64,000 nt of DNA from the IMG/VR virus record IMGVR_UViG_3300028840_006907, positions 64,001 through 128,000 of that record; one strand, written 5' to 3'. This document shows positions 2,341-54,689 of this stretch, in pieces. Each line of letters opens with the position of its first letter. The stretch's first letter is position 1. Position numbers and translations under genes: made by a program. The stretch is from a virus. Under the pieces are notes generated by a model, which was given only the letters and a program-made list of their open reading frames with translations, was not told where the DNA came from and did no database searches.

Positions 2341-5300
2341 ATGTACTCTATTGATGATTTTATTCAAACTGTTTTTTCATATACTCTTCAGAAACAGAAA
2401 TTCTTCGCAGCAGCAGAACGTGCTTTAAAGAAAAATCTCCAATCCTATATACGCCCCGACTTTTTCGGAACTAGTTCGGGAGATGTCCGACTAGATAATT
2501 TACTTGTATCTCTCGCCAATAGATTGGGTGAAGCTGATGTTGAAGATAAAAGAATTTTTCTTGAAGATGCAGTAAGTGATTTTGTCTCAGAAGAGAAGGC
2601 TGACGAGTTAAGAGCAATCCTTGAAACCAAATTGGAAAGAAAACATAAAATCCCTGAAGAACTAGCTGATAAATTTATCAGTAAATCAGGTTTACTTGTT
2701 GATGAAGAGAAAAAAGAATTTGATCGTGTGAAGAAAGATATGGTCAAATTGATCTCAGGTTTTATTTACGGTTTCTTCGAAAATAAATTTAAAGAATTTG
2801 TACGAGCAAAAAAGAAAAAAGAAGATATCGGTAGAGAAGTAGCCCCGGATCTAGAAGTCCTGCCTGATAGTGAATTAATTGATCAAGCTGAAAAAGAACA
2901 AGAATGGCAAGAAGGTTTAACTAAAGATCTGTTTGGATATATCAATAAAAATGTTCCGGAAAAAAGGCGCTATGCTTATAAAATGATCTTGTTAAAAAGA
3001 TTTATGGTAGCACCAGCTAGTAGGATGGGTTTTGTTGAAATGGCAGAAAAGACAGGAATACCCAAATCATCTCTGGAAGAATGGGAAAAAGATTTGGGCC
3101 GTAGACTTGCTGAATATCTCTCTGCAGGTGGCCTTGGCCCTAAATTCGTTAGTGAGGGTGGCCTTTATAAAAAAGATGTTAAAGTTCCCGATTATAAAGA
3201 TGTTTTTAAAAACAAAGAGAATTCGAATGATTTCAAAGATTTCATGGAAGGCAAACAACCAAAAACCGGTAAACCCATGAGTGAGAAGGTAAAAAAAATA
3301 TTAGAGTTGTTTGCTGAAGGTAAAGATACCAAGGAAATCGAATCACAGACTGATGCGAGTATTGGTCAGATAAAAAAATTAAAAAGTACTCATTTCTCTC
3401 CCTGGTATAAAGAGTGGTATGCTGAAATGCTTAAGGATGTCAGAGAAGCTACAGAACGTATAAAGAAAGCTCTTATGATAATTAATGGTGAGACACCTCC
3501 TCCAGCTTCTCATGAGAAATATGTGAATATGGCAATAGCTAAAAAATACCCTCTTGAACTTACTGTAACTTTTAGTGCCAATTATGATAACCAGGATTTA
3601 ATAAAGGAAAGTGATCGAGTTGATCCGGAAAAAGACCCGGTTGATTTTAAATACAAACATTACCAGGTAAAATTAGAAAGGACCAGTAGACCCCGAATTG
3701 AATATACTTTTGATCAAAAATTAACCGATAAAGGTGATTTTGAAGGTAGCCCTCGATCATCATTGGTCATTGAAGGAAATCCTGGTCATGAAGGTTTGAG
3801 AAGAAGGCTCGATGAATATGTCGAGCAAGAAATGAAACCAGAGGGTATCCTTCCTTACGGTCCTTCGGTAAAGGGTAGAAAACCTGTCCAGATCCCTGTT
3901 GAATATGTAAATGAATCTCTTGATAGTACTAAGACCTATGATGGGTCTAAAAAAAGAAGATATCGTGGATTTATTGATTTCGCTGACAAGTACAAAGGTT
4001 TCATGGTAAAAGACCAACCTCATTTAACCCGGGTTCAGGAAGAAAGTAAAAGGGAAGAGAAGAAATTGTTACCTAAGGGTGGAAAAAATGAAATTCGAAA
4101 ATTGATCCAGCATTTAAAAGAAAATATTGGTGATGAAATGGAAGAGACTACACCCGATAAGAAAAAAGTTGAGGTGTGGAAAAAACAGATTAAAGAATTA
4201 CAGGATCATTTGAAGAAAGATTCTGAAAAAGAAATAGTGGATTTTGTCTCAAAACATAAAGAGAGGTTTAAATTCGCTGTCTCTGAAGAGCGCATGAAAA
4301 ATGTTCGTGAATTGATGAAACTCAGAGAACTAGTAGAAAACCAAGAACAACGATTGTTACAAAGAAAAATGAAAGGTGATCCTAAAGATAAGGATACAGT
4401 TAAACTTAAAGAAGATATAGCAACAAATAAAGATAAAATCACTAAGCTCGAAAAAATCCTTGAAGAAACAAAAGAGCCATTTCCTCCACCAGAATCGGCT
4501 AAAGTTCAAAAGTTATTAAAGGAACTTTCTGATCTCGGTATTAAAGACAGAAAATTAGAAGAATTCCTGACTTCAACTGATCTCCAATTTTTTGTTAACC
4601 AGGTACAAGGTGCTCTGGCCAAGGAAGCACAAGATAATATCGCAGGTGTTAAGAAAAACAAAAATATGAGTGATGAGGAAAAGAAACAGGAATATGAAGC
4701 TATTGAGAGAAAACGTGGTGTAAAGCTGAATAAATTTATCGAGTTGTTTGAAGCTGTACCTGAAGACATGAAAAAACGTCTGGAGAAATATAAAAAGGCT
4801 GATCCCAGTGGGTATAAAAAATTAGAAAAGAAGCATGGGGCTCTTTTAAACTGGGTAAATAATCCTGAAAAAGCCCTCTCTAAAGTAAAACAGAATCTTT
4901 CTACACCGAAAACTCTTGAGGCTCCAAAAGGTAAACAGGAATCAGTGGTACCTATGGAGGAAGAGGATGCTAAATACATGCTCAATTGGCTTGAGGCCCA
5001 GTTACAGGGTTTCGATGTTATAGGAGAAAGATTTGGTCAGGCAGCTTTAAAAGCAGAAGGTTTAAGTCCACAAGAGAGAGTTAAGGTAGAAAAACAATTA
5101 AAAGATACAGAAAAAGAGTTTCAGGATTTACGAAATAGAATAGGTGAAATGGAAGGTAAAGGGAAGGCTACCACTAGTGAAATCAAAGATCTGAAAAAAG
5201 ACATACCGACTTATATGAGAACAATAGAAGGTTTAAAAAGTTCTCTTTCTGATTCAAAAGAATCTCCTGCTATGATTATGGCACAAGTTTTAACTGATCG

Positions 5301-6923: not shown

Positions 6924-7682
6924 TTGGAGACATCTGTGAAGTATAGCGTACTTGTACCCTACTATAAACGCCTAGGGCACCTACATAATACCTTTATTTC
7001 CTTTCTACACCATTATTCAGATAGAAATGATTATGAGGTTGTCATAGCAGAAGATTATAAAAATGTCCAGAATAAAAAAGACCATGACGGTCTATCAGAA
7101 ACCATTGAGAAATTCCGTGAAAAAATACCGATAATTCATTTAACTCTTTCTATGGAAACCTGGAATCCAGCTCATGGTTTTAATGAAGCTGCAAAGTGGG
7201 CTTCTGGTGAATATTTCGTTGTAACCAATCCAGAATGTTTCCATCAAGTGAACATACTGGCTGGACTCGATAAAGAATTTGAAGAAGACCCCAATGTCTA
7301 TGTTGTATGTGGTTGTATGAATTATGTCCGTTGTAATTTTTTTATTAAAAACTTTAATGATCTAAATGGAAAATTTCAGAGATGGTACCAACACTCAATA
7401 CATAGAGCAGCCCACTATCATTTCTGTTCAGCTATTTCAAAACAGAATTGGGTAAAAATAGGAGGATTCGATGAAGACTTTGCTATGGGTATAGCCTATG
7501 ATGATGTCGATTTTAAATTAAGCATTCAAAAAGCCAAGATACCCTTTCATATCCGGGATGACCTTCTTACTATACATATTGACCATGGTTCCTTCCCATC
7601 TCCTCCAAATGCTCAGAAATTAGTTAATCGAAATAGAATCACCTATCAAAGAAAATGGGAAGGAAGTAATGAATCTTACTAG
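6924..7682 (+). CDS. putative glycosyltransferase-like protein
   Basis: 252-aa ORF with non-ATG start (TTG 6924 or GTG 6936); weak GT-A-like features only. Confidence 0.35.
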   Translation: METSVKYSVLVPYYKRLGHLHNTFISFLHHYSDRNDYEVVIAEDYKNVQNKKDHDGLSETIEKFREKIPIIHLTLSMETWNPAHGFNEAAKWASGEYFVVTNPECFHQVNILAGLDKEFEEDPNVYVVCGCMNYVRCNFFIKNFNDLNGKFQRWYQHSIHRAAHYHFCSAISKQNWVKIGGFDEDFAMGIAYDDVDFKLSIQKAKIPFHIRDDLLTIHIDHGSFPSPPNAQKLVNRNRITYQRKWEGSNESY

Positions 7683-9762
7683 TTATACCGCAGCCGACAG
7701 TATCCCGATAAAATTGATTAAGAACTTTAAATTGTTAAAGTCCATGACAACAAAAGGAGTCATCTTACCAATCCATGTCCAGTTCATACCCACAAATAGA
7801 TGTAACATGAAATGTGGATTTTGTAGCTGTGCTGAAGATGACAGAAAAACAGAAATGTCCCTTAAAAATGCTAAGAAGATCATCAGAAAATTAAAAAAAC
7901 TCGGTACTCAATCCGTAACCATCACCGGAGGAGGAGAACCACTCCTTTATCCTCATCTCCAAGAATTGTTTTCTCTGTTTAAAGATGCCGGGATAAAAAT
8001 CGGTTTTGTTACCAATGGCCTCTTATTAGGTAAATGTACCTATGAAGATGTAACCTGGTGTCGGATTTCTAATTCTGATGAAAGAAAAATGGACATGGAC
8101 TATTATCACACAATAGCTTATGCTGTTGAAGATAACCCAAACGTGGACTGGGCCTTTAGTCATGTCGTTTCTCCAAAACCAAATATCTCCGAAATAAAAC
8201 GGATCATAGAATTTGCCAATCTCCATGATTTTACCCATGTCCGATTAGTAGCTGATCTATTGAATTATAAAGAAGTAGATTTAATGCAGTTAAAAATCAC
8301 TCTTCGAGATGAAAATGTCGATGATGATAAAGTCATCTATCAAAGTAGAAATACCCCGCTCAGAGGCGGAGACTGTTATATATGCTATCTTAAACCCATG
8401 ATAGGGGCTGACTGTAATGTGTACGCTTGTTGTTTAGAGGCTAATGAACCTGTATTAATCCAGAGAAATAACGAAAGGATGTATTTATCTATAAAGGATG
8501 TTGTTCCAGGGGATTATGCTTGTGAATATGGAAAGATTTTAAATGTGTTTCATAAAGAGGGTGAAGAAGGCTTGGAAATAGTTTTGCAAAATAATAGGAC
8601 TATTTATGTTTCGAAAGATCATCTTATGCTTAAATTGACAAACCCTGAAATTAGACATAAGAGAAAGAAGTTATTATCTGACTATGAATTAGATACAATA
8701 GAATCTTCTGAATTAAGAATTGGAGATTTACTTCCGGTCAAATATAAATATGATATTAGTGAAATAAAAGAAGATACTATATCTGAAGAAGAAGCAGAAT
8801 TAATAGGATATTATGTAGCTGAAGGTTGGTCCAATGAACGAACTTGTATAGTTGATAAAAAATATCCTACTAGAACTACCACTATAGGATTTATGCTAGG
8901 GAAAGAGTCAAGAGAATATATAAGAAGATTTGAAGAAATTTGTGATATTTTGAATCTAAATTTTTCTATGACTGAACGTAGAACTGGTATGCAGTATCAG
9001 ATAGGTGCACATAAACCCTACGATGACTTAATTGTACACTGTGGTAATAAAGCAGAATTAAAAAAGATCCCTCCTTTTATTTTAAACGGCTCTGATAAAA
9101 TAAAGTGGAAATTTATTCAAGGCTATTTTGGAGGTGACGGGAATTTTCAAACTCCTTCTAAAAGCTATGATGGTTTTAAAATGAGAATGAGTACTGTCAG
9201 TAGACAACTAGCTAATGATATAATTTATCTCTTTTGTACTTTAAATATTCATGCTTCTATGAGAGTTGAGAGACGTGAAGGAAAAATGATAATAGAAGGA
9301 AGAGAGGTAAATGCTAAAGATCGGTATCATATAAATATAGGGGGAGCCTATAATTTAGAAAAAGCCCCATTCCTAAATGTAATTCAAACAAAAGAAAGAA
9401 GTCCTAAAAGAGCCCTCGGTTTTTTGAAAGATGAGGATAAGGGCATTATGTTTGTACCAGTTAAAGAGATCAGAGAGAAAAAGTTAGGAAAATTAGTAGA
9501 CATTCAAGTGGAAGGTTCAAATAAATTTATATCTTCATTTGGTATAATAGTTCATAATTGTGGCGTCCAGTATGCTCTTAAAAAGCCTTCAAAGAATCTT
9601 CCTAAGAAACTGAGCCTAGGAAGTGCTTTTGATCTTGAGAAGATAATTGAGAACAGTAATAAGCCCCTGGACGGGAGCATGTGTTATCGATGCTATTATA
9701 GTAATTATAACAAGATACTAGGATCCATCCTGGATGATACCGATCATATGGAGTTTGTATGA
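7669..9762 (+). CDS. radical SAM protein interrupted by an intein
   Basis: CNMKCGFC (CxxxCxxC) Fe-S motif near N-terminus; about 376-aa insertion with intein hallmarks. Confidence 0.7.
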   Translation: MNLTSYTAADSIPIKLIKNFKLLKSMTTKGVILPIHVQFIPTNRCNMKCGFCSCAEDDRKTEMSLKNAKKIIRKLKKLGTQSVTITGGGEPLLYPHLQELFSLFKDAGIKIGFVTNGLLLGKCTYEDVTWCRISNSDERKMDMDYYHTIAYAVEDNPNVDWAFSHVVSPKPNISEIKRIIEFANLHDFTHVRLVADLLNYKEVDLMQLKITLRDENVDDDKVIYQSRNTPLRGGDCYICYLKPMIGADCNVYACCLEANEPVLIQRNNERMYLSIKDVVPGDYACEYGKILNVFHKEGEEGLEIVLQNNRTIYVSKDHLMLKLTNPEIRHKRKKLLSDYELDTIESSELRIGDLLPVKYKYDISEIKEDTISEEEAELIGYYVAEGWSNERTCIVDKKYPTRTTTIGFMLGKESREYIRRFEEICDILNLNFSMTERRTGMQYQIGAHKPYDDLIVHCGNKAELKKIPPFILNGSDKIKWKFIQGYFGGDGNFQTPSKSYDGFKMRMSTVSRQLANDIIYLFCTLNIHASMRVERREGKMIIEGREVNAKDRYHINIGGAYNLEKAPFLNVIQTKERSPKRALGFLKDEDKGIMFVPVKEIREKKLGKLVDIQVEGSNKFISSFGIIVHNCGVQYALKKPSKNLPKKLSLGSAFDLEKIIENSNKPLDGSMCYRCYYSNYNKILGSILDDTDHMEFV
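8431..9558 (+). mobile_element. intein with LAGLIDADG-type homing endonuclease domain
   Basis: Starts with Cys (CLEANEP), block-B-like SKDH, LAGLIDADG-like LIGYYVAEGW and FIQGYFGGDGNF, ends IIVHN followed by Cys. Confidence 0.6.
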
Positions 9763-12019: not shown

Positions 12020-15018
12020 AGGGAAACCCCGCTCAGATGCAGGGAAGAAGATTTCATTAAGAAGTTTTAGGAAGAGCCCCGCAGAGGAGGAACCTCGCAA
12101 GATGCGGGGAAAAGGAACTTCAGGCAATTGGCTGGGATTAGCCCCGCGAAGGTGCGGGGAAAACAGTTTCCATGAACTATATTAGGGAGAGCCCCGTTGA
12201 CACGGGGAAAAACCCGTCTTTACTTAGTGAGATCGAGGAAGGAACAGCCCCGTTGATACGGGGATAAAATAATATGACTTTTACGAATCCTCTAGGGACA
12301 GCCCTGCAGAGTGCAGGGAAAAGTAACGTCTGGGAATTGTTTAGGATTAGCCCCGCGAAGGTGCGGGGAAAGCCATAGATTTTATATTGACACAGGAAAA
12401 ACCCCGGTATAGTCCGGGGAAAAGTACGTAATCAAGATGTAAGAGGATTAGACCCGGCGAGTCCGGGAAAAGATTGGCCCAATCACTATTAAGTAGGGTG
12501 GGATAGCCCCGCAGAATGCAGGGAATAGATGCCTCACTTCATACCACTGCGTCAACCCCAGTAGAGTCCGGGGAACATGAGTGTAAATCTCTGTCGTAGG
12601 TTCAACCCCGGAGAGATCCAGGGGAAATGGGTACAACTTTGTGTACAAGGGGTAGCCCCGGAGAAATCCGAGGAAAATGAGTGTAAATCTGTGTTGAGGG
12701 TCCAGCCCCGCTCAGTGCAGGGAATATTAAGGGTCAAAACCGGTTGCCCCTGCGTCAACCCCGGTGAAGTCCGGGGAACATGAGTGTAAATCTCTGTGGT
12801 AGGATCAACCCCGCAGAGTGCAGGGAAAAATTGAACTTTTTAATCAACCCTGTAACAGCCCCGGAGTCAGTTTTGACAAGTCCGGGGGAATATCACTTCG
12901 TAAAGGAGTGGCTGTCAAGGGGGCAACCCCACAGAGATGTGGGGGAAAGTAAGCCAACGTTCCGGCATAGGCATAGCCCCTGAATTTACAGAGGGCAATT
13001 TTTCCAGTGTCCAGAAGAAGATGCAGGGAGAACCCCGGAAAGTCCAGGGGAAAATGTGTCACAGAACAACTCTTTGTGATCTCCAGGGTGAACCTCGCAG
13101 AGGTGCGGGGGAAAAGTGTCAATGAATACCAGTATGAGTCAGCCCCGGTATAGCCCGGGAATAATTACTTCTAGTCTGATAGAAGGTGCAACCCCGGGAA
13201 GTCCGGGGAAATCGGTCATAGCCATCTGGACCAGGAAGAACCCCGGTGAGATCCGGGGAAAAGGACGTTTAAATCCTGACATAGTAGCTAACTGAGGCGT
13301 AGCTCCGGTCGGGTCAGCCCTGCAGAGAGCAGGGAACAAACATAGGTAATAAATCGGCACGTGACAGCCCCGCAGAGAGGCGGGGATATATAGCGTGAGT
13401 TGCAGGGTAAGGTTCAACCCTTGTTTACCAAGGGAAAAATACCGGCAGATAAGAATTTAGGATGACCCCCGGTGAAAGTCCGGGGAAAATAATTAATACG
13501 CAAAACAGCAGGGCCAGTCCCGCGAGATGCAGGGAATGTTCAGCCAGTTTGTGTAATATTTCAGGAGACGGTGGTGCAACCCTGTCAAGGACAGGGATAT
13601 GCAACATCTGTGGCTCTACGAGGATCAGCCCCGGCAAGTCCGGGGAATTATCTTTTTATAAATGCCAAAAATAACAGTTGGGAGGGGCCAATTCCGCTGA
13701 TGCAGAAAGACATTTCATAATTAATATATTTATGGAAGAGCCCCGGTGAAATCCGGGGAAGTCAAGTAATTACAGCTCGCTGACCACTGGGGGTAGCCCC
13801 GGTAAGATCCGGGGAAAAGTTTGTTTTGAAACAAACGCTAGGAACAGCCCCGCTCAGGTGCGGGAGAATCACTGCATATTTGGTTAATGGCCCCCCTGAG
13901 TCAATCCCGCTCAGGTGCGGGGAAAATAAAGAGATAGACTAATTCAATATGCAGGAAGAACCCCGCTATATGCAGGAAAATTTAAAAAGTATGGATATCT
14001 CCTTGAGTCAACCCCGGAGATCCAGGGAAATGTAGGCACTCGTTGTCCTTTGTCGAAGTGTGAAGGGCAAACCTCGTTGATACGAGGAACAAATTTAGTT
14101 TTACTTTTGAATAAAAGTGGTCAAGCCCCGCTCAGGTGCAGGGAATAGATAAGTATACCGACGATAGCCAGGACAGCACCTGTGGTTTAGCCCTGCATGT
14201 GCAGGGAATAGTTGAGTTGAAGATTGAAGAAAAAGATAAAGTAGGGTCAGCTCTGCATGTGCAGAGAATAGCCTTTCTTCAAGCGTTGACTTGGGAGTAG
14301 GTGGGGATCAGCCCTGCACATGCAGGGAATAGAATGGTGAATCAAATTCCATTTTGTCAAAGAACGGCGACAGCCCTGCCAGTGCAGGGAATATGATTTT
14401 AACGATGGTAAAATTGGGAAGGGGTCAGCCCTGCACATGCAGGGAATAGTCGCTAGTTCAAATCCAATCGCCCCGACAGGATCAGCCCTGCATACGCAGG
14501 GAATAGAAAATACTGACGATAAACTAGCGATATGGGATCAGCCCTGCATACGCAGGGATATAGCTTGACGAATGGCCGTTTTAATGCCAGGAGTAACCCC
14601 GCTGCGAGGAATAGTCATTTCAAATATATAGGTAAAGCCCCGCGAAAGAGCGGGGGTATAATATGGCGGATTTTGTTCTATTGGTGGAATCCGGGCCATC
14701 CCCGTAGATTGACACGGGGAGATCTTTTAGAAATCTACCAAGGTGCCTTTCCGGAGTCATCCCCGTATATACGGGGGAGATTTCAATTCAGGGAATTTCG
14801 GTACAAAATTGGTCGGTTTATCCCCGTATACACGGGGAATATTGTTTCAATAGGGCATAGCAGATCTAGGATCGGGGAATCCCCGCAGGGGCGGGGAACA
14901 TCTCGGATTTATTAATCAAATTCAAACGTTTTTCGGGGAATCCCCGCAGGGGCGGGGAACATTGTTTTAAGAGGTGGTAGTTACCTCGTAGGGGAATCCC
15001 CGCAGGGGCGGGGAACAT
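12020..15018 (-). CRISPR. CRISPR array 1: about 55 hairpin repeat units, three identical leader-proximal repeats, progressively divergent distal repeats
   Basis: Leader-proximal repeat (minus strand) ATGTTCCCCGCCCCTGCGGGGATTCCCC at 14874-14901, 14935-14962, 14991-15018 with 33- and 28-nt spacers; periodic CCCCGC/GCGGGG-type hairpins back to about 12020. Confidence 0.8.
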
Positions 15019-15127
15019 ACTAAGTCATAATGCCATTCAAATCAAAGGTTTATAGGAACCCTAATTTTCTACCAAAGAAAAATGTACTTGTCATGTATAA
15101 ATGTCAAAGAGCGTCAGAGAGAAATCC
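15019..15127 (-). promoter_or_regulatory. CRISPR leader 1 with conserved ~50-bp block shared with leader 2
   Basis: 15058-15112 nearly identical to 22627-22677; contains TTGACA on the minus strand. Confidence 0.5.
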
Positions 15128-17359
15128 CTAGTGGATATACCGAATCCATTCATATCGAATTTTCATCGTTTTATAAGGAGCTTTTTTTCTCCCTGGAAAT
15201 ATGTTTCCTTCAAAAAGGAAAAATTTTTGAACAATTTTAAATTCAGCGTTTGATGGTGTCAAGCTCTGTGGTGCATAATCCGAACGCCAGTAATTATTAC
15301 AATATATAAATTTTTCTTCTCTGTCTTTTTGTATAAGGCCCGGAAACACCACTAAAACTATCTTTTCGTTTTCAATAACAATATCCCCTTGATAAATAGC
15401 TATTTCTAAATCCAGACCATCCTGCTCTATCACACGAGCATATTTCGAGAGTTTCCCATCAATCTTTACTTTAGCTTTAGGGGGAATATCAAAAGTTATC
15501 CATTCACCTTTTATGTCCTTAATGCTTTGAATAGGTTTTTTAACTGGAATTTCTTGAAAGACATGATCTTGGTATTCTGCTTTTTTAAGGATTTCTCCAT
15601 CTTTTTCCATATTAAGCAATAAAGCCTTTTCCATGATGTCTTTAAGTTCATAGAGATCTTTTTCAGTTAAGGGCTCTTTTGTTCCGAATACGATGGAACC
15701 TACATTCTCTAATCGAGCGATTTTATCAAAACCCTGTTTCCGGACAAAGTCTATGGTAATATGTTCTATTTTTCTATTTCTTGAAAGTCTTATGATTCTT
15801 ACAAATTCAGTTTTAATTGTGTCTTTGAAATTATCAAAACTTAAATGATCTTCTACGTAGGGATGATACAAATCCGCTATAAGACTTAATAAAATTTCTA
15901 TGTCTTCAGGTTTATCCTGTTTACGGTTGTAATCATAAGCTTTAATAATTTCTTGTCTCATTTCCATTAATATATCAGGAGCCATTATTTCACTTAAACT
16001 GGTAGATCCTTTTTTGTCCCGATAAAAGGGAGCTGTTGGAAGTAAGGGAATCCTGATAGCAGCACAAAGTTCTGACATTACAATTGAGGTTAAGAACAAA
16101 TTCAATCTGTCTGAATATAATGCCCTGATATTATTACGTTCTTCTTTTTTAATAGGTGGAACATAAATGTATAACCATATTTTATCTTTTTTAGGGTAAC
16201 ATCTGAAAATACGAAACATTATTTGAGAGAAGGTCACCTGACTCTTTCCATAACTTGTATTATGTAAAACAGCAGCAGGAGGCCAATCATACCCTTCATA
16301 GAATATTCTGCAAGATACGGCGACCCAGTATTTTTTATGATTACGTCTCAATAACTCTCTATTTTTTTTCTGAGTTTCCGGTGTGACTAAATCCAGTACT
16401 TTGGACGCAGGATATATTTCGTGAATAGCTTTTAAATATTTTTTAAGGGTTCCTTCCTCTCTGAACCGGTTCCCCATGTCAGGTAATATGACAATGTGTC
16501 TTTGATCTTTGTGCTCTTTCATATATCTAATGATCTGAGTAAGGGGATCTTTCCTATAGTGAGTGAAACGGAAATTGAATTCTTTGATTTTTATGATTGA
16601 GAGATAGTCATTTAATGGGATAACCCATTTTTCAAAATGATGTTTATAAGCATTGGGGACTATTTCTCCTCTGTCTGTGCGGTGGTAAGTAGCTGTATAA
16701 AAATTTACGTTACAAGTAGGTTCATGGATGGTACATACATCTCTGACAAAATCACCCAAATGAGTGGAATCTAGTGGGGTTGATTTTGAATGATGGCATT
16801 CATCTACATGTACAGTTAAATTTCTAAGGGCTTTCTTTTTTTCATAGTTGGTTAATTTTTCCCAGGTCATGACAAACCCTCTATGGGTAGCTGTAGCAAT
16901 AGGGCCTGTTATATGTTTTTCATTGTACGGGTATTTTCGAGGATCTGCTAAAAGGAATTCTTTAAGTCCTTTAATGGATTGAGGGTTTTCACTATTGAAT
17001 TTATGTTCTTTTGGTACTTCCCACAATCTTACCATACCTTTATATTTGATTTTTATTTGTCTATTTTGGGATCTGCAGAAATTTTCACCTATTTCTATTG
17101 TTGGTGCGATAAAGATATGTTTTCGAGTATTTTTAGATATTATGATTTCATCCAGGGATATGCATACTGCTAAAAAAGTTTTGCCGACTCCCCCTGGTGC
17201 ATCAAAGATCATGTATCTGAATTTTTTCCCATATTCTTTTGCATTGCATTGCCAGCCAGAGGGTATCATGATCCCTGATTCAAGTTTTTTATTATAGGTA
17301 CCAAGGTCAACCGGTTCTATTTTAATAGATTGCTGGAAAAGCGGTAATAGCTTTTTCAT
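15128..17359 (-). CDS. SF2 helicase, Cas3-like helicase module without HD nuclease domain
   Basis: Walker A DAPGGVGKT and DECHH box; in-frame stop 18 codons upstream excludes an N-terminal extension; no HD dipeptide. Confidence 0.6.
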   Translation of the reverse strand: MKKLLPLFQQSIKIEPVDLGTYNKKLESGIMIPSGWQCNAKEYGKKFRYMIFDAPGGVGKTFLAVCISLDEIIISKNTRKHIFIAPTIEIGENFCRSQNRQIKIKYKGMVRLWEVPKEHKFNSENPQSIKGLKEFLLADPRKYPYNEKHITGPIATATHRGFVMTWEKLTNYEKKKALRNLTVHVDECHHSKSTPLDSTHLGDFVRDVCTIHEPTCNVNFYTATYHRTDRGEIVPNAYKHHFEKWVIPLNDYLSIIKIKEFNFRFTHYRKDPLTQIIRYMKEHKDQRHIVILPDMGNRFREEGTLKKYLKAIHEIYPASKVLDLVTPETQKKNRELLRRNHKKYWVAVSCRIFYEGYDWPPAAVLHNTSYGKSQVTFSQIMFRIFRCYPKKDKIWLYIYVPPIKKEERNNIRALYSDRLNLFLTSIVMSELCAAIRIPLLPTAPFYRDKKGSTSLSEIMAPDILMEMRQEIIKAYDYNRKQDKPEDIEILLSLIADLYHPYVEDHLSFDNFKDTIKTEFVRIIRLSRNRKIEHITIDFVRKQGFDKIARLENVGSIVFGTKEPLTEKDLYELKDIMEKALLLNMEKDGEILKKAEYQDHVFQEIPVKKPIQSIKDIKGEWITFDIPPKAKVKIDGKLSKYARVIEQDGLDLEIAIYQGDIVIENEKIVLVVFPGLIQKDREEKFIYCNNYWRSDYAPQSLTPSNAEFKIVQKFFLFEGNIFPGRKKAPYKTMKIRYEWIRYIH

Positions 17360-17382
17360 TGTCTTTTTCCTCTCAAATAAGT

Positions 17383-17412
17383 CCTGGAAAGCCTTTTCAG
17401 GGGCTTTCCAGG
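17383..17412 (-). other. 11-bp stem-loop between micro-ORF and helicase gene
   Basis: CCTGGAAAGCC / GGCTTTCCAGG inverted repeat with 8-nt loop, about 25 nt upstream of helicase ATG. Confidence 0.4.
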
Positions 17413-17444
17413 ATTAATGTACTGTGTATTCTATATCAACACTT

Positions 17445-17600
17445 TCAATCGTTTTTATCAATCTCCGTGGCTAATACCGACATAAATGACATTCCGGTTC
17501 CTCCTGGTAATTCAATAATAGAAGGTCTTTTGATGTTCTCTTCTAAATTCCTAGAAGCGAGTTGCCAAGAATAGGCTTTTATAGTTTTTGTATTATTCAT
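17445..17600 (-). CDS. micro-ORF (51 aa) between cas6e and helicase
   Basis: GGAGAT 8 nt upstream of ATG at 17600; no known motif. Confidence 0.25.
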   Translation of the reverse strand: MNNTKTIKAYSWQLASRNLEENIKRPSIIELPGGTGMSFMSVLATEIDKND

Positions 17601-17628
17601 TTTAAAATCTCCATATAAAAGGTTTATT

Positions 17629-18273
17629 TTAATAAGATTTATACGGTGCAATAAGCATCATACCACATCCGAAACCTTTACTCTTACCAATTCCATTATA
17701 AATAGTATTCACAAAAAGATTTTTATTGACTACCTGAAGGACTCCTCGTAAATCAATACTGAAAAAAGATACAACTTTACCATCTTTTTTTTTGAATTTA
17801 CAGAATTGAAAAGATTGAACGGAATGCTTTTGAATCATATTTTTAAAACCGTAACTTTGGCCACGTTTCTGAAGCCAATTCTTTGAGGATTCGTGAGCAA
17901 TGAAATTCCAATTATAGGGTTCATCAAGAACTTTCATTTCATTTGCCAGATCCGTCATGATTGAAACCTTTTTCCTGGTTTTCAATTTACAAACTTCGGC
18001 ATTGAGTCTGAGATCGTATTGAAGAAATATTCCAGATTTTAAATTATTTAAATCGAATACTTTTGTTTGTGTAGTGTATTCGTCCTCTGGAGGATTTGGT
18101 TTCTTTTTTGATATGATATAAAGTTCACCATTATAGAGATAATAAAGGAAATCTCTTACCCTGTTAGATCTTTGATCACCAAAAAATTCCCAGACTTTTT
18201 GATGAAGCTCATATATACCTTCGGTGGGAGAATATCTTCTCAAGCTGTCACTGTAAATTTTACTCAGAAACAT
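17629..18273 (-). CDS. cas6e: Cas6e (CasE) endoribonuclease
   Basis: Start set at internal Met (GGAGG RBS); MFLSKIY N-terminus and C-terminal GIGKSKGFGCGMM resemble E. coli CasE. Confidence 0.75.
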   Translation of the reverse strand: MFLSKIYSDSLRRYSPTEGIYELHQKVWEFFGDQRSNRVRDFLYYLYNGELYIISKKKPNPPEDEYTTQTKVFDLNNLKSGIFLQYDLRLNAEVCKLKTRKKVSIMTDLANEMKVLDEPYNWNFIAHESSKNWLQKRGQSYGFKNMIQKHSVQSFQFCKFKKKDGKVVSFFSIDLRGVLQVVNKNLFVNTIYNGIGKSKGFGCGMMLIAPYKSY

Positions 18274-18910
18274 TCGATACCTCCTTCCATCCCATATACT
18301 CAATTCGGGATCGGTATTGTTTGGGACCGGTTACCTGATCAAAACGTTGATTGCTTTTTACTATTTTGATACTGGTATCGGTACCTTCCCAAAATATTCG
18401 GTTCTTTTCACGCCCTTTAAGACTACCATTAAGAAATTCAGGAAGAGAGTACTGTTCAAACGCCTCTGAGAGGCTCTCAGCCTTAACGATCTTAGGATCG
18501 GGTGGTATGTCATAGGAACAGCATTTCCTTCCAAGAAAGGGGGTATAGATGGGCCTATTAAGGGCTTCCATTATTTTCTTCAAAGTATAGGGACAGTTTT
18601 CATTCTCCCATATACATACGGTAAAGATGGCATTGACTAGGTAAAATCTATTCGAGACAATTCCTGGTCCGACTCTGACAATATGGAAATCTTTTAGAAT
18701 AGTACCAGGATTATCTTCCCTACAGGCAAATCCTAGTTGGGCAATCTGAGTTAATTCTTTCACCATTTCTCTTGAGACTCCAAGAGAAGCAGCGATTAAC
18801 CCGCTTACGCCAGATTTGGTAGGGTGATCATCTGTCTTTCGGGTATTACCCTGAAGGGGGAGACCCCAGGCGGATAGAGTACCCGAAAGAAGGAATAATA
18901 AATAATTCAT
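18260..18910 (-). CDS. cas5e: Cas5e (CasD)
   Basis: MNYLLFLLSGTLSAWG and YTPFLGRK resemble E. coli CasD MRSYLILRLAGPMQAWG and YTPYLGRR. Confidence 0.8.
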   Translation of the reverse strand: MNYLLFLLSGTLSAWGLPLQGNTRKTDDHPTKSGVSGLIAASLGVSREMVKELTQIAQLGFACREDNPGTILKDFHIVRVGPGIVSNRFYLVNAIFTVCIWENENCPYTLKKIMEALNRPIYTPFLGRKCCSYDIPPDPKIVKAESLSEAFEQYSLPEFLNGSLKGREKNRIFWEGTDTSIKIVKSNQRFDQVTGPKQYRSRIEYMGWKEVSNVSE

Positions 18911-18933
18911 AATATTATAACTCCTGGTAACAA

Positions 18934-20019
18934 TTAGAAATCGATGAATTTAATAAGTTCGTTAAGTGATCCTTCTTTTGTGAGTACATTCAAGATCCTA
19001 TAATCCATTTCATGGTAACATGAATCAAAACTACTTTTCATGTCAAGAAGGGCTTTGACAGCATTTTCCATAACCGCAGGACCTTTAATAGGAGTATGGA
19101 AGGCTTGACAGAGACTTCGTGGGGCAGTTGGAGCTTTTTCGATCATAACGAATGCTGGCCATGTTTGACTATCAGCACATCTGTTTTTATTAGCTGAGGG
19201 GGATGAAGTGGTTAATACTTCGACTATCTGTCGGATGGTTTTGATAGCTAGTTCTTTATTACCTTGAAGATTTTTCGTTAAGAGCTTGGAATTGATTACA
19301 AAGAAACTATAATAGACACCCTGGGTAAAATAGAAATTATCTAGGTGACCTGAACCTTTGGTTCCTTCTAATCCAAGGTTATCGGTAGCTGTAAAATAGT
19401 CGGTTTGGACAGATCCTATATCATTGACAGTAAAAGCGAAATTTGAGGACAGTGAAGCTTCAACATCATATTGGGGCAGTTTTGCAATCATGCGACCGGT
19501 AAGGGCTGTTCTGATTCCTGTATTTTCTTTTAAAAAGAAGAATTCTTGATCAGTGGGTTTATGCCCCTCAATAATTTTGTCAATCAGTTCTTCAATATGT
19601 TGTCTTTCGCTCGGTTGAATTTTAATGGTTTCGGTTTTAAGAAGATCAACCTTTTTTTTCTTTTTCTTTGTATTTTTATCATCTTCTTTTTCAGTGTGCT
19701 TTTTGATATCAACAAAAGTACCAATAAATTTAAATGCGTATTCTTCAGCTTTTTTAGGTGATATTCCACCATCAATTAATCTTTTCTCGACATATTTTCC
19801 AATAAGAGGAGTCTGAAGACCTATATCGATTTCGCACCTTTCAAATAGAGCCTTGTTTAAATCATATTTTCGATTTTGTGAAGACGAATAACCTCGGTTG
19901 GTATCATTAAGTTTCATTGTTTTAGGACGTCCGTCCTGGCCTCGGTTTATGCTAGATACAGCTACACCAGTGAGAAGGTGAATTAACCAGTAGGGGTCTT
20001 TAATAATAGTTTTAGACAT
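18934..20019 (-). CDS. cas7e: Cas7e (CasC) backbone subunit
   Basis: 361 aa; N-terminal SSINRGQDG...SSQ pattern like Cas7e SxLNRDD...SSQ. Confidence 0.75.
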   Translation of the reverse strand: MSKTIIKDPYWLIHLLTGVAVSSINRGQDGRPKTMKLNDTNRGYSSSQNRKYDLNKALFERCEIDIGLQTPLIGKYVEKRLIDGGISPKKAEEYAFKFIGTFVDIKKHTEKEDDKNTKKKKKKVDLLKTETIKIQPSERQHIEELIDKIIEGHKPTDQEFFFLKENTGIRTALTGRMIAKLPQYDVEASLSSNFAFTVNDIGSVQTDYFTATDNLGLEGTKGSGHLDNFYFTQGVYYSFFVINSKLLTKNLQGNKELAIKTIRQIVEVLTTSSPSANKNRCADSQTWPAFVMIEKAPTAPRSLCQAFHTPIKGPAVMENAVKALLDMKSSFDSCYHEMDYRILNVLTKEGSLNELIKFIDF

Positions 20020-20045
20020 AAATACTCCTTGATATTTATTATTTA

Positions 20046-21989
20046 TTATATGTTATTTGAATATTCTCTTTCCCAGTAGAACTTGACATCTTTGCTCCAG
20101 TGGGCATACCCTTCCATGAAACTGATGATGTTAAATCCTTCCATTCGAGAAACAACATCAGCAAATACTTTCCAGTTTTTTTGTATATCCGTTTTATTGA
20201 AACTCATCATTTCGTCAACATGTCGGCGGTTAATTTTTTGAGAACCCATTTGGGCACCGAAAGATTGAGAAAAATCCAGATCCTTAGCTTTAAAAACAAT
20301 TAGTAGAAGAGGTACGAAAAGAGTCTTCATATCTTCTGATCTTAAAGCAGGGAAATGCATAGACATTTCTAAAATAAAATTCAAATAAAGGTCTTCATGT
20401 TTTAAGATATCGATGTCAAAACATCGGGTAAATACCCTATGTTTTTCTGTATTTCTAATAGTCCCGTACCAGGACAGGAATGGTTTGGTAAAGACCTGGT
20501 TAAAATGAGGTAGGTTTAATTTCCTGTATTCGATATGGGCGAAATTCTCATATTCTAATGGTTGTAGTTTAAGAGGTTTAACAACTTTTTTATTTAAGGT
20601 TTCGATAAATTGTTCCTTAAAATATTTCTGTAAACCTCTCTTTTCAGTACCTACATTTTTTTCAAATGTATCGAAAGCTTTAACTACCATCTTTTCCAAC
20701 CATTTTTCGATATTATGATTCTTGAGAACTTCATAGAAGTATTCTTCAGTTTCTGTCAGAAATTCGTGAAATATTAAAGGTTCGGTTTTATCAGTTCCCC
20801 AGAACTTTCTTATATAATTACAGGTATACCATCCTATAAGATATGAGTGTTCTCTGATATTTAAAGTAAACGCACTATCTTTATAGAGTTCTTCTGGGAT
20901 ATCGAATTTATTTTCCTCCCATCCAAAGAGTTTGGCTTTAGCCATATTATAACCGAAAGTCCATAATCCGAAATCAGTTATTCCAAGATATTCTCGGTTC
21001 TCCATGAAATGACTCACCACTAAAGCTGGAGTTAATTTTTTAGCTGGTAGTAGATAGGTCACAAGATCGAGATGGCTGGTAAAGTCCAGGGGTTTCCGGA
21101 AACCTGTTTCTTTGCCTTTTATAATGGGTGAAAGGATATGACGTGGTTTGACATAACAGTTACCATAATTCCTCGTTTTTATCTTTCTAACCATTAATTT
21201 GGAATGATTGCCACAGATAGTACATGATTCATCAAATTTATCAAAGATAAGATGAATACGTAGAGGCATTTCCCAGAGCGGGTAATAAGGATTCATCTCA
21301 TCCAGGGAAACAGTAGCTTTGTTTTTACTATCAACGGTATCACTAAGCCATGGGAGTGTTACACCTTTTGGATTTCCTCCGAATTCAAACATGGTCTTTT
21401 TAATAATAACATTAGACCATATTGTTTCCCATAACGTGGAACCGGTAATAATAGTGGTAAGAGAACCATTGGCACCGGCTGTTATCGAAGTACGGTATCC
21501 TTGGCCTCCCATAATGGCACTGAGTTGATTAAGATAAAGGGCAATTGTAGCACAGGATTGGCAAAAAGTATGTATCTTTGCTTTTTGGAAGAAATCTTTA
21601 CCAGCTTTAATTGTCGCTGTCCCTGGAGTATCAAAGAGGAGATTACCAACATTTACGATTCTTTCAAGGTCCTGTGGCCGTTTATCCTGTAAAAAACGAG
21701 GACCTTTGCCATCTAGTTCAAAGAGTTTTGGTTTAAGTTTTTCTAGGATGGCTTTTTGGTTTGGTGCTTTTTTGAATAGTTTTTTCCATTCTTTCTTACT
21801 TGTAGGAGCAAGATAAGTGTTGAAAAAACCTATGAGAAGCCGTACACCTACAGCATTGAAATCGGGTCTACCGAAATCGAGAGCTATTATAGGGTTATTA
21901 GGTTTTGAAGTTATTTTGTAGGGTGGAATGTTTTCCCTGGTACCGTCTTTTCGGATGACGGGGATCCAAGGGTCCTTAATTACATTCAT
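20046..21989 (-). CDS. cas8e: Cas8e (Cse1) large subunit with about 145-aa C-terminal extension
   Basis: MNVIKDPWIPV and CQSCATIALY match Cse1 DNWIPV and CGGCTAIALF; GGAGGT RBS. Confidence 0.8.
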   Translation of the reverse strand: MNVIKDPWIPVIRKDGTRENIPPYKITSKPNNPIIALDFGRPDFNAVGVRLLIGFFNTYLAPTSKKEWKKLFKKAPNQKAILEKLKPKLFELDGKGPRFLQDKRPQDLERIVNVGNLLFDTPGTATIKAGKDFFQKAKIHTFCQSCATIALYLNQLSAIMGGQGYRTSITAGANGSLTTIITGSTLWETIWSNVIIKKTMFEFGGNPKGVTLPWLSDTVDSKNKATVSLDEMNPYYPLWEMPLRIHLIFDKFDESCTICGNHSKLMVRKIKTRNYGNCYVKPRHILSPIIKGKETGFRKPLDFTSHLDLVTYLLPAKKLTPALVVSHFMENREYLGITDFGLWTFGYNMAKAKLFGWEENKFDIPEELYKDSAFTLNIREHSYLIGWYTCNYIRKFWGTDKTEPLIFHEFLTETEEYFYEVLKNHNIEKWLEKMVVKAFDTFEKNVGTEKRGLQKYFKEQFIETLNKKVVKPLKLQPLEYENFAHIEYRKLNLPHFNQVFTKPFLSWYGTIRNTEKHRVFTRCFDIDILKHEDLYLNFILEMSMHFPALRSEDMKTLFVPLLLIVFKAKDLDFSQSFGAQMGSQKINRRHVDEMMSFNKTDIQKNWKVFADVVSRMEGFNIISFMEGYAHWSKDVKFYWEREYSNNI

Positions 21990-22210: not shown

Positions 22211-22236
22211 ATTTCCTCCGTTTACACGGAGGAAAT
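22211..22236. other. perfect 10-bp palindromic hairpin between array 2 and cas8e
   Basis: ATTTCCTCCG TTTACA CGGAGGAAAT. Confidence 0.35.
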
Positions 22237-22264: not shown

Positions 22265-22586
22265 GACAGCCCCGGTAAAGTCCAGGGAAATAAAAATTAG
22301 TGATAATTCGGGAATCAGCAGGAGGAGAGCATCAGCCCTGCGTATGCGGGGAATAGTGTTATCGTCTTACAGGATGTAAAGCAGAGACAGCCCCGCGTAT
22401 GCGGGGAATAGAAATTAATACATCTCATAAAATCTAGCATCAGCCCCGCGTATGCGGGGAATAGTTATTTATCTATACTTCCTACAACTCCCATAACGCA
22501 TCAGCCCCGCGTATGCGGGGAATAGCTCGTTGGTTTTCCCATTCCACAAAAGTTCAACGCATCAGCCCCGCGTATGCGGGGAATAG
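22265..22586 (-). CRISPR. CRISPR array 2: five 28-bp repeats plus a degenerate terminal repeat, four spacers
   Basis: Repeat (minus strand) CTATTCCCCGCATACGCGGGGCTGATGC at 22329, 22384, 22437, 22498, 22559; spacers 27, 25, 33, 33 nt. Confidence 0.85.
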
Positions 22587-22690
22587 ACTATAATATAATT
22601 AGTTGAAAATCAGAGAGTTACAAAGACCCTAATTTTCTACCAAAAAAAGTACTTGCCGTTTATAAATGTCAAAGAGCTTATCTTTAAAGG
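22587..22690 (-). promoter_or_regulatory. CRISPR leader 2
   Basis: 22627-22677 nearly identical to the array-1 leader block. Confidence 0.5.
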
Positions 22691-22857
22691 TATAAATCCT
22701 CTTCATCCTCAGGAGCCAGATCTATATCTGAAAGAGTTCTGCTCCCACCGAAATCTAATTCTAATACTTCATCTTCTCCACCTGTATTAAAAAAATCATC
22801 TTCTTCACTTGGCTCTTTAAGAATCTCATCAGCATCGTATTCTTCGATTGGTAACAT
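22684..22857 (-). CDS. small highly acidic protein (57 aa)
   Basis: Hand-translated MLPIEEYDADEILKEPSEEDD...; GAGGGG RBS; stop abuts leader 2. Confidence 0.45.
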   Translation of the reverse strand: MLPIEEYDADEILKEPSEEDDFFNTGGEDEVLELDFGGSRTLSDIDLAPEDEEDLYL

Positions 22858-22872
22858 AACATTTCCCCTCTT

Positions 22873-23316
22873 TTAATTGTTTCCTTCATTGATATAAAGA
22901 AATCCAGTTCTTTCCAATGTTAAATCTAAATCATTCTCTTTAAGTTTAAAGTTTTTTATTGTGTCTTGCACATCTTTTTTTCCATTCATACATACCCATA
23001 ATGCGTGTTGAAAGAATTCATCATTATCAGGTAACTTTGAGATGTACTTATGTGTAGGTGGAGGACAGTTTTCAGGTTTAATATCCTTTTTTAAAGCCAG
23101 TGCGGTTTTACCGCTATTAAATACATGTAATGGTAATCCTAAGAGATATACCCGACTTTTCATCTCTCTCAATGTCTGTTCTGCCTGGGATAATGTCATT
23201 TCATTGTTTTTCATTAATTCCATGATAGTTTGAGCCACAACCATTGCATTGTTATATTGTGGTTGATCTATAATTTTATTCATCTTTTTTAATACTTCTT
23301 TTATTATATCTGGCAT
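22873..23316 (-). CDS. hypothetical protein
   Basis: 147-aa ORF in a co-directional gene string. Confidence 0.5.
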   Translation of the reverse strand: MPDIIKEVLKKMNKIIDQPQYNNAMVVAQTIMELMKNNEMTLSQAEQTLREMKSRVYLLGLPLHVFNSGKTALALKKDIKPENCPPPTHKYISKLPDNDEFFQHALWVCMNGKKDVQDTIKNFKLKENDLDLTLERTGFLYINEGNN

Positions 23317-34425: not shown

Positions 34426-34502
34426 TGGTACCCCAATCAGGACTCTAACCTGAAATCTTTGGCTCCGGAAACCAACGCTTTATACAATTAAGCTATTGGG
34501 GC
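34426..34502 (-). tRNA. tRNA-Arg (anticodon CCG), CCA encoded
   Basis: Hand-folded cloverleaf: GCCCCAA/TTGGGGT acceptor, loop TTCCGGA, atypical T-loop. Confidence 0.5.
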
Positions 34503-34511
34503 ATTATAAGA

Positions 34512-34586
34512 TGGCGGTGCGTAAGGGAATCGAACCCTTGCCAGGAGATCGACAGTCTCCGGTCCTAACCACTGAACGAACGCACC
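34512..34586 (-). tRNA. tRNA-Asp (anticodon GTC), CCA encoded
   Basis: GGTGCGT/ACGCACC acceptor, loop CTGTCGA, T-arm GGTTCGATTCC. Confidence 0.7.
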
Positions 34587-34595
34587 GTATTTTTA

Positions 34596-34760
34596 TTAAT
34601 CAATTTTTTTATTTCCGATAAAAAGACCGCAGTCGCATTGCCGAGCCATTTTCGTTTTATTCTTTATTACAATGCCTATTGCTTTAATAGGCTTTTTACA
34701 AGTGTTGCAAATATTTTGCTGTGTCTTTTTGTCATGCTGTTTCACTGCTGTTTTAGCCAT
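34596..34760 (-). CDS. micro zinc-ribbon protein (54 aa)
   Basis: Hand-translated MAKTAVKQHDKK...CNTCKK...CDCG; AAGGAG RBS. Confidence 0.35.
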   Translation of the reverse strand: MAKTAVKQHDKKTQQNICNTCKKPIKAIGIVIKNKTKMARQCDCGLFIGNKKID

Positions 34761-34782
34761 TACTTGTACTCCTTAAATGTTA

Positions 34783-34856
34783 TGGCAGGGACGGTCAGAT
34801 TCGAACTGACATCGCCGGTTTTGGAGACCGGGTGCTTGACCGTTAGCGACGCCCCT
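34783..34856 (-). tRNA. tRNA-Trp (anticodon CCA), CCA encoded
   Basis: Loop CTCCAAA, T-arm GTCAG TTCGAAT CTGAC. Confidence 0.65.
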
Positions 34857-34871
34857 GTATTGACAAATTTT

Positions 34872-35045
34872 TCATGATTTGAACCATTCACTACAACCTT
34901 CGGCTAGTTCTAATAAATGAACACAAGGTTTTGTTTCTTTTGCCAGAACACAGCCACACACTGTACAAATTACCACAGCAGGTTTCAAATCATGTTTCTC
35001 AATTTCAGCGAATGCTTTCACTATATCATTCACTATATCATTCAT
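34872..35045 (-). CDS. micro Cys-rich protein (57 aa)
   Basis: Hand-translated MNDIVNDIVKAF...CTVCGC... Confidence 0.3.
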   Translation of the reverse strand: MNDIVNDIVKAFAEIEKHDLKPAVVICTVCGCVLAKETKPCVHLLELAEGCSEWFKS

Positions 35046-35062
35046 TTTTTCTCCGAATTATC

Positions 35063-35135
35063 TGGGCGCAGACGGACTTGAACCGCCCACGAATGGCTTA
35101 TGAGACCACTACTCTACCGACTGAGTTATACGCCC
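35063..35135 (-). tRNA. tRNA-Met (anticodon CAT)
   Basis: GGGCGTA acceptor, loop CTCATAA, T-loop TTCAAGT; no CCA. Confidence 0.65.
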
Positions 35136-35143
35136 TTGACTTA

Positions 35144-35221
35144 TGGCACACCCGGCACGATTTGAACGTGCGACTTCTTCGTTCGTGGCGAAGATCTCTA
35201 TCCGGACTGAGTTACGGGTGC
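35144..35221 (-). tRNA. tRNA-Arg (anticodon ACG), CCA encoded
   Basis: Loop CCACGAA, T-arm CACG TTCAAAT CGTG. Confidence 0.6.
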
Positions 35222-35227
35222 GTATTT

Positions 35228-35728
35228 TTATAAAAAAGTTTTATACGTTTTTTTATTAATGATATATGATAATGTTGATTTTGCTGATTTATATTCCTTT
35301 GCTAATTTATTTAAACTTTCTCCATTTTTATTTCTGTTAATTATAGATTCTATCTCTTTTTTTGTGAATTTTCTTAATTTATACGCAGCTTTAACTGCTT
35401 GCTCTTTTCTTTCTTTTTCAGGTATATCAAATGAATTCTCTGATCTTGTACCAATTGATATATTAGAATCATTGAAATTTAATCTATTTCTATCTAAGTG
35501 TCTAGTCTCAATCCCTTCTTCAAAAACTTTATCCCCAAATAAAAAGTATGCTTTTAATTTATGTACTTTTAAATTTTTAATCTTTTTGTTTACATAGATA
35601 TTTATGGTAGGGTAACCTTTTGAATAATGGAATCTTAAAGGTTTTCCCATTGGCCCAATAACTTCATTTTTATCATTAAAATGATATCCTTTTTTTACAG
35701 CTATTTTTAAGACATCATTATTTTTCAT
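35228..35728 (-). CDS. HNH-family homing endonuclease
   Basis: Phage HNH-like GYHFNDKNEVIGPMGKPLRFH block and C-terminal helix-turn-helix; sits inside the tRNA cluster. Confidence 0.5.
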   Translation of the reverse strand: MKNNDVLKIAVKKGYHFNDKNEVIGPMGKPLRFHYSKGYPTINIYVNKKIKNLKVHKLKAYFLFGDKVFEEGIETRHLDRNRLNFNDSNISIGTRSENSFDIPEKERKEQAVKAAYKLRKFTKKEIESIINRNKNGESLNKLAKEYKSAKSTLSYIINKKTYKTFL

Positions 35729-35748
35729 ATATTAATTTTTCTTTCTAA

Positions 35749-35821
35749 TAGGGGTACGGGGAGTCGAACCCCGGTCGTGGGAGAGAAAATCCCATATCCT
35801 AAGCCATTAGAAGATACCCCC
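35749..35821 (-). tRNA. tRNA, anticodon probably TTC (Glu), atypical position 37
   Basis: GGGGGTA acceptor, T-arm CGGGG TTCGACT CCCCG, loop TTTTCTC. Confidence 0.5.
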
Positions 35822-35866
35822 ATAAAATAAAAAAGCTCCTGTCTGGTTCTCACCCGACAGGAGCTT
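35822..35866 (-). terminator. rho-independent terminator-like hairpin
   Basis: 10-bp stem AGCTCCTGTC/GACAGGAGCT followed on the minus strand by TTTTTTATTTT. Confidence 0.55.
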
Positions 35867-54294: not shown

Positions 54295-54314
54295 ATGCAT
54301 ATAAAGGGGAAATA

Positions 54315-54683: not shown

Positions 54684-54689
54684 AAATGG

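Follow-up and report, generated by a model that had tools for sequence, protein, structure and literature searches.

We found that a gene for a small, highly acidic protein, located beside a CRISPR leader in a huge phage, belongs to a family that phages share with bacteria. We favor the notion that this is a captured host gene, that its disordered acidic product acts as a decoy on the partner of the host's own copy, and that it is not a component of the leader or array. We hold this explanation tentatively, at a little under an even chance. Proteins of the family are 56-62 amino acids (aa) long and are encoded by huge phages and by Fibrobacterota. The family has not been described before, but small acidic proteins of phages that probably act as decoys are already known as a kind.

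The acidic gene is in a 64-kb stretch of DNA (the window, that is, the whole stretch analyzed) that is part of a huge phage of ~470 kb carrying a type I-E Cascade operon (Table 1). The window contains 22 tRNA genes and a tmRNA gene. The largest contig with the acidic protein is 469,617 bp long; the one fetched, from JGI sample 3300017963, has 388,651 bp. The tRNA genes are in three clusters (34426-35822 and 53795-63431 are listed together with the tmRNA at 47873-48282, minus strand), and the tag peptide of the tmRNA ends ...AIHQAEEAVV. Elsewhere in the window, a radical SAM ORF (7669-9762, plus strand) is split by an intein that carries a homing-endonuclease domain of the LAGLIDADG type, and an ORF of 1514 aa (2341-6885, plus strand) had no significant Pfam domain.

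The cas operon extends from 15128 to 21989 on the minus strand. Its Cas8e (647 aa) is ~150 aa above the usual length. The ORFs scanned around the cas genes included no Cas1, no Cas2 and no separate Cas11, and the system is non-canonical for this reason. A 743-aa SF2 helicase was weakly Cas3-like (E=0.006), with no HD nuclease domain detected.

The window has two CRISPR arrays. In array 2, whose first repeat ends at 22586, the repeats are oriented as in the type I-E consensus when read on the minus strand. The leader-distal part of the array (22328-22464) has spacers of 24 and 26 nt, compared with 32 nt in the proximal part. The distal repeats contain substitutions, as if the old end of the array were decaying. 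The two 32-nt spacers had no exact match in IMG/VR. There is no sigma-70-type promoter on the minus strand of the leader, and the conserved blocks do not fit TTGACA-17-TATAAT. Array 1 (~12100-15127, minus strand) is headed by a second copy of the leader, ~80% identical to that of array 2 as read from the alignment. This array is ~3 kb long and has ~50 type I-E-like hairpin repeats (TTCCCCG/TTCCCTG-N6-8-CGGGG/CAGGG) whose stems, loops and flanks vary from copy to copy, with short spacers of ~25-32 nt. The GC content of the window jumps to 0.50 at 12-14 kb because of this mosaic or degenerate array, which might supply crRNAs for several Cas6e/Cascade variants. A search of positions 10-26 kb of the window with Rfam gave nothing.

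Table 1. Acidic gene, its motifs and the surrounding CRISPR-Cas features (positions in the window)
Feature	Position	Strand	Description	Basis
Upstream 147-aa gene	22873..23316	(-)	same operon; context, not a constant partner	ORF
RBS GAGGGG	22865..22870	(-)	7 nt 5' of the ATG	read from sequence
Acidic-protein gene	22684..22857	(-)	57 aa, predicted disordered; stop codon included	ORF and translation
Motif 1, residues 1-16	22810..22857	(-)	ML..E(E/N)(Y/F)DADE(I/V)L(K/R)(E/D)	alignments, including MAFFT
Motif 2, residues 33-37	22747..22761	(-)	EL(D/N/S)FG	alignments
Motif 3, residues 49-56	22690..22713	(-)	acidic run ending D(L/M)(W/Y/F)	alignments
Array-2 leader	22587..22683	(-)	97 nt	conserved in L003 and L023
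CRISPR array 2	22328..22586	(-)	five type I-E-like repeats; spacers 32, 32, 24, 26 nt	
Terminator-like hairpin	22211..22236	(-)	between array 2 and cas8e	
cas8e (cse1)	20046..21989	(-)	first of cas8e-cas7e-cas5e-cas6e	Pfam and PADLOC matches
Second leader copy	about 15049..15127	(-)	heads array 1; directly after the 743-aa helicase gene	

The acidic ORF encodes MLPIEEYDADEILKEPSEEDDFFNTGGEDEVLELDFGGSRTLSDIDLAPEDEEDLYL, identical to the translation in a preliminary description of this DNA. That description had also reported ~40% Asp/Glu, a GAGGGG ribosome binding site, and a location immediately 5' of the array-2 leader, and we confirmed each of these. The protein contains 12 Glu, 10 Asp, 1 Lys and 1 Arg, such that Asp/Glu make up 22/57 residues (38.6%) and the net charge is -20. 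The window has 217 ATG-initiated ORFs of 40 aa or more, and this Asp+Glu fraction is the highest among them; the runner-up has 0.26. Purine-rich, Shine-Dalgarno-like sequences are found at the position of the ribosome binding site in nine homologues. The ORF starts 15 nt past the stop of the 147-aa gene on the same strand and is the final gene in a minus-strand block of small phage genes. Its stop codon ends at 22684, and the leader abuts it at 22683 on the same strand.

We found homologues of the acidic protein in 14 other lineages (15 counting the window), all 56-62 aa long. Six are in related phage contigs and eight are chromosomal in Fibrobacterota/Chitinivibrionales. A single-sequence search of 5.8 billion proteins gave no match beyond the protein itself. 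An exhaustive phmmer search yielded one homologue of 59 aa (P0006), and a phage contig (L003) reached through a homologue of the 147-aa neighbor had a 60-aa acidic gene at the same position. A profile made from four sequences then identified nine family members (56-61 aa) in protein databases, and a pattern scan across GTDB, with one genome for each species, identified six more, all in metagenome-assembled genomes of Fibrobacterota or Chitinivibrionales. The window protein matched the family profile with E=1.4e-20 and carries all three family motifs. Two long proteins found with phmmer (P0004, E=1e-14; P0005, E=1e-4) were rejected as repeat-amplified chance similarity. They contain repeated discoidin-like and NHL-like strands (…LEIDFSGSKTIDEIDV…, …VELPFGGSQTT…) and resemble only the central segment of the window protein.

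The comparison within the phage clade rests on ENA, JGI and Logan contigs. Searches of 50,697 GenBank phage records gave no match to the acidic protein (tblastn) or to the 12 kb around its gene (megablast). Scans of IMG/VR with Cas8e, the 147-aa neighbor, the acidic-family alignment and a Cas8e alignment gave no confirmed relative.

The pattern of sequence variation indicates that the ORF is a real gene. The ORF is very short, has no database annotation and overlaps a 45-aa ORF on the opposite strand, as might be expected of a chance ORF that has no product and whose acidity is a by-product of base composition. However, length, start, ribosome binding site and motifs are conserved in 15 lineages. 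All members begin with ML, and every indel that contributes to the differences in length is in frame in the alignments. Nei-Gojobori dN/dS was 0.06-0.37 in all pairs with unsaturated dS. For one pair with saturated dS (L020 and L021), there were 27 synonymous and 6 non-synonymous differences. We consider a chance ORF to be already refuted by this conservation, and give it practically no weight. The preliminary description had named a lack of conservation or synteny as grounds for abandoning its claim. We found the reverse: because the gene is conserved, and is syntenic upstream of cas8e in related phage contigs, we conclude that it encodes a real small acidic phage protein.

The bacterial homologues are on cellular contigs. 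Contigs L007 and L017-L022 have a GC content of 38-54%, compared with 30-41% in all but one of the 2-kb bins of the window. By Pfam, the bacterial contigs carry genes for TrkAH, EPSP synthase and a biotin/lipoate ligase. Additional genes, read from N-terminal sequences, are presumably those for MnmE, GlgA, UppP and CheY. Searching with the phage Cas proteins (tblastn) revealed no cas homologue in any of the eight bacterial lineages, in flanks of up to 10 kb. Based on these results we conclude that the ancestral role of the family is not tied to CRISPR. Fibrobacterota/Chitinivibrionales are probably the hosts of this phage clade.

In seven of the eight distinct bacterial lineages, the acidic gene is ~35-115 nt upstream of a gene for an LpxH-like calcineurin-type phosphoesterase. 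The best NCBIfam match of the phosphoesterase was UDP-2,3-diacylglucosamine diphosphatase (E=2.8e-28, below the curated cut-off). The pair of genes persists despite divergence of the LpxH-like protein to 29% identity. There is no LpxH-like gene in the 64-kb window (of the ~470-kb phage genome). In four bacterial lineages, the acidic gene is preceded by a gene for a protein of 220-250 aa (L007:9222-9884, L018:2455-3129, L019:2397-3152 and L025:3-524) that has an N-terminal Zn ribbon and weak TPR-like matches. It is possible that the Zn-ribbon/TPR protein, the acidic protein and the LpxH-like protein constitute a three-gene unit in bacteria.

The neighbors of the acidic gene differ among the seven phage lineages that contain it (the window, L003, L023, L005, L010, L015/L016 and L024). 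In the window, the order is 147-aa gene, acidic gene, leader and array, and cas8e. L003 has a 150-aa gene, the acidic gene, a gene for a Zn-ribbon protein (51 aa), leader and array, and cas8e; L023 has a 147-like gene, the acidic gene, the Zn-ribbon gene, and leader and array. In L005, a 147-like gene and the acidic gene are followed by the end of the contig. The order in L010 is 182-aa gene, acidic gene, 72-aa gene, Zn-ribbon gene and cas8e, with no array at that site. In L015/L016, a gene for a 61-aa membrane-like protein is followed by the acidic gene and the start of the Zn-ribbon gene, and the order in L024 is as in L015. P0003, which is 58% identical to the 147-aa protein, precedes the acidic gene in L003, L005 and L023 and is absent from L010, L015 and L024. 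Thus, the acidic gene is retained in 7/7 phage lineages while its neighbors change.

Several contigs (L002, L005, L015, L016 and L024) break 17-130 nt past the acidic gene, and the break in L002 is just beyond the first array repeat. These ends suggest that repeats or spacer heterogeneity interrupt assembly.

Adjacency to the leader is not a constant property of the acidic gene. Among the relatives seen, only the window phage has the acidic gene directly at the leader; elsewhere one or two small genes intervene. The Zn-ribbon gene encodes a basic CxxC...CxxC protein of 51-54 aa (L003:3543-3698, L010:6412-6576, L023:493-648) and separates the acidic gene from the leader or cas8e. The window has no homologue of it anywhere in its 64 kb, and this absence is the only reason why the acidic gene and the leader are adjacent in this phage. 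In L003 and L023, the leader begins right after whichever gene precedes it, which there is the Zn-ribbon gene. L023 also has a lone CRISPR-repeat-like hairpin (TTCCCCCGTAAATACGGGGATA, L023:665-690) between the Zn-ribbon gene and the leader. The second leader copy in the window follows the helicase gene, indicating that the gene 5' of a leader is incidental. We conclude that the leader is an autonomous module and that the acidic gene is not a component of the leader or the array. The preliminary description had taken leader adjacency to imply a regulator or inhibitor related to the locus. The intervening genes, the L010 site without an array and the second leader after the helicase gene weaken that claim.

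We also considered the linkage of the acidic gene to cas8e. In all of the phage contigs that are long enough to show it (the window, L003 and L010), the array or cas8e follows within 0.1-1 kb of the acidic gene, on the same strand. This would be expected if the product served the phage's own type I-E system as a dedicated accessory or regulator, was transcribed together with the pre-crRNA, and modulated Cascade or array expression, for example as an auto-inhibitor in the DNA-binding groove. It is also in keeping with such a role that, in the window, a terminator-like site follows array 2 but none separates this array from the acidic gene, and that the system is non-canonical, the Cascade having no separate Cas11 and Cas1/Cas2 not having been found. 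However, the wider block, including DUF4031, DUF488 and neighboring genes, is collinear among these phages, so the linkage to cas8e may be plain synteny; we found it only in the three collinear phage contigs. The position of the acidic gene relative to the leader and array is not fixed (zero, one or two unrelated small genes intervene, and the array is not at the L010 site), and the leader is self-contained. In addition, cas genes are absent from the flanks fetched around the bacterial homologues, and the acidic protein had no match in PADLOC. The preliminary description had proposed looking for conservation beside cas loci in relatives: the gene is indeed syntenic 5' of cas8e in related phages, but its bacterial homologues are without cas neighbors. 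Overall, we think it quite unlikely that the protein is a dedicated type I-E accessory. A captured host protein might instead have been repurposed as a modulator of type I-E Cascade, either as a disordered anti-CRISPR against host Cascade or as an auto-inhibitor or assembly factor of the phage's Cas11-less Cascade, co-transcribed with the pre-crRNA from the upstream operon. We regard this as very unlikely.

The Zn-ribbon protein is rich in Lys and Arg, and its gene comes next after the acidic gene in L003, L023 and L015/L016, and after one intervening gene in L010. The two products could thus form an acid-base pair in which the acidic protein neutralizes its basic partner as a chaperone or antidote. 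In contrast to this expectation, the window phage keeps the acidic gene without the Zn-ribbon homologue, and the bacterial loci do not contain that gene; the Zn-ribbon/TPR protein encoded upstream in bacteria is unrelated to it. We consider it highly improbable that the function of the acidic protein is to neutralize the Zn-ribbon protein.

The conserved features of the acidic protein are three short motifs (Table 1), with acidic linkers of variable length and sequence between them. Motif 1 is the best-conserved part and is nearly identical in phage and bacterial members; the first 15 residues are identical in some of them. Four residues of motif 2 (E33, L34, F36 and G37) are invariant in nine sequences. 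The D(L/M)(W/Y/F) of motif 3 is at the C-terminus or one residue from it.

The protein is predicted to be disordered. AlphaFold2 (AF2) models had a pLDDT of 67.8 and a pTM of 0.20 for the window protein, in which the sole helix was residues 49-55 (7 residues), and 61.3 and 0.17 for the bacterial member P0012. The input alignment had only nine sequences, so the absence of a predicted fold is weak evidence. By charge-hydropathy, 12/12 members tested were on the disordered side of the boundary, with net charges of -18 to -23. The acidic protein had no match in Pfam (E<=10), NCBIfam (E<=10), PHROGs (E<=0.01) or PADLOC, a search of PDB sequences with the family profile (E<=10) gave no match, and a Foldseek search of the model against the PDB gave 0 matches. 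The picture from these predictions is of an intrinsically disordered polyanion with three putative docking motifs, and not of a rigid, Ocr-like mimic.

Our preferred explanation begins with capture by the phage of a host gene for a small acidic protein. We infer the direction of transfer, from host to phage, from the breadth of the distribution rather than from a tree. Because all three motifs are kept, and the first 15 residues are identical in some members, the phage copy probably engages the partner of the host protein. The phage product would serve as a flexible acidic decoy on that partner, held in place by the hydrophobic and aromatic residues of its motifs while its polyanionic linkers cover a basic surface. 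The leading candidate for the partner is the LpxH-like metallophosphoesterase encoded immediately downstream in bacteria, a suggestion that comes from the gene neighborhood within one phylum. A basic nucleic-acid-binding protein is an alternative candidate, for which the disordered acidic middle domain of SPO1 Gp44 (below) offers a precedent.

If this explanation is correct, a huge phage carries a copy of a small disordered host protein with its motifs almost unchanged. The near-unchanged motifs would then point to mimicry of a host regulator rather than to a new CRISPR component. The bacterial family, in which the pairing of an acidic peptide with an LpxH-like phosphoesterase is conserved across Fibrobacterota, is itself undescribed, and it may be the sign of an as yet unrecognized regulatory step, perhaps one of lipid A synthesis. 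The sharing of homologues also points, indirectly, to Fibrobacterota/Chitinivibrionales as the hosts of this phage clade. With regard to CRISPR biology, the outcome is mainly negative, in that adjacency to a leader is no evidence of function here.

CRISPR-Cas systems of huge phages that have no Cas1/Cas2, and in which a helicase replaces Cas3, have already been described (Al-Shayeb et al. 2020, PMC7162821). Like the phages in that report, the window phage has many tRNAs, a tmRNA, compact arrays, and a Cascade and helicase without adaptation genes. The system in the window is type I-E-like, whereas the example quoted there is a type I-C variant, and that report is about the CRISPR systems as such and not about any small acidic gene next to them.

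The preliminary description had likened the acidic protein to Ocr-like or anti-CRISPR-like DNA mimics and had proposed a structural comparison with them. T7 Ocr, ArdA, AcrIF2 and AcrIIA4 are rigidly folded, with their carboxylates arranged in a DNA-like pattern. The acidic protein shares with them small size, a phage origin and a high density of Asp/Glu, and has the high negative charge density of Ocr and ArdA. Unlike them, it has no predicted fold, no family match and homologues on host chromosomes. The model is too disordered for comparison and the Foldseek search of the PDB was empty (with the nine-sequence alignment as input), and neither sequence and profile searches nor a compact fold placed it with Ocr or ArdA. 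Similarly, we found no homology to described anti-CRISPR families (Pfam, PHROGs). None of the three upstream genes had any Pfam or PHROG match, and hence none to an aca-type helix-turn-helix (HTH) protein.

These results bear on the notion that the acidic protein is an anti-defense mimic of nucleic acid, a polyanion that, early in infection, would block the site at which a restriction, BREX or Cascade complex of the host binds DNA. Its extreme acidity, its small size, its location in a block of uncharacterized small phage genes and its retention in all seven phage lineages while the neighbors change are what this notion predicts, and there is precedent for a disordered acidic DNA mimic in Gp44 of phage SPO1 (below). 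Weighing against it are the missing resemblance to the Ocr, Ard and Acr families in Pfam or PHROGs and to PDB sequences, the lack of a predicted compact fold, and the downstream neighbor, which is the leader or, in relatives, the Zn-ribbon gene. Furthermore, close homologues are chromosomal, under strong purifying selection, and in a conserved pair with the LpxH-like gene, which is not expected of an inhibitor of host defense. We therefore consider an anti-defense mimic unlikely.

The C-terminus of the family also resembles a known acidic tail. Single-strand DNA binding proteins (SSBs) have acidic C-terminal tails, e.g., ...DDDIPF in E. coli SSB. The tail and the acidic family share a disordered acidic stretch with a hydrophobic or aromatic end, which in the family is ...D(I/L)(P/A/S)PEEEEDL(W/Y/F). 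Unlike SSB, the family has no OB-fold domain, and the aromatic residue is last in some members only, being followed in others by L, S, Q or E. We take this as a resemblance only.

The middle domain of SPO1 Gp44 (residues 56-122) is a disordered acidic segment that is reported to mimic ssDNA and binds RNA polymerase (PMC8208478). That domain and the acidic protein are both phage-encoded, ~60 residues long, extremely acidic, almost without basic residues, and disordered (by prediction for the acidic protein), and for both a flexible imitation of nucleic acid is the proposed mode of action. With an Asp/Glu content above ~35%, scarcely any basic residues and predicted disorder, the acidic protein is of the Gp44 type in these respects. 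We detected no sequence relationship between the two in PHROGs or the PDB. Gp44 is a 27-kDa protein of three domains with a folded DNA-binding N-domain, whereas the acidic protein stands alone and, unlike Gp44, has three conserved hydrophobic/aromatic motifs and chromosomal homologues in bacteria. The earlier proposal of a DNA mimic survives in a looser form, in which a disordered polyanion acts as a decoy.
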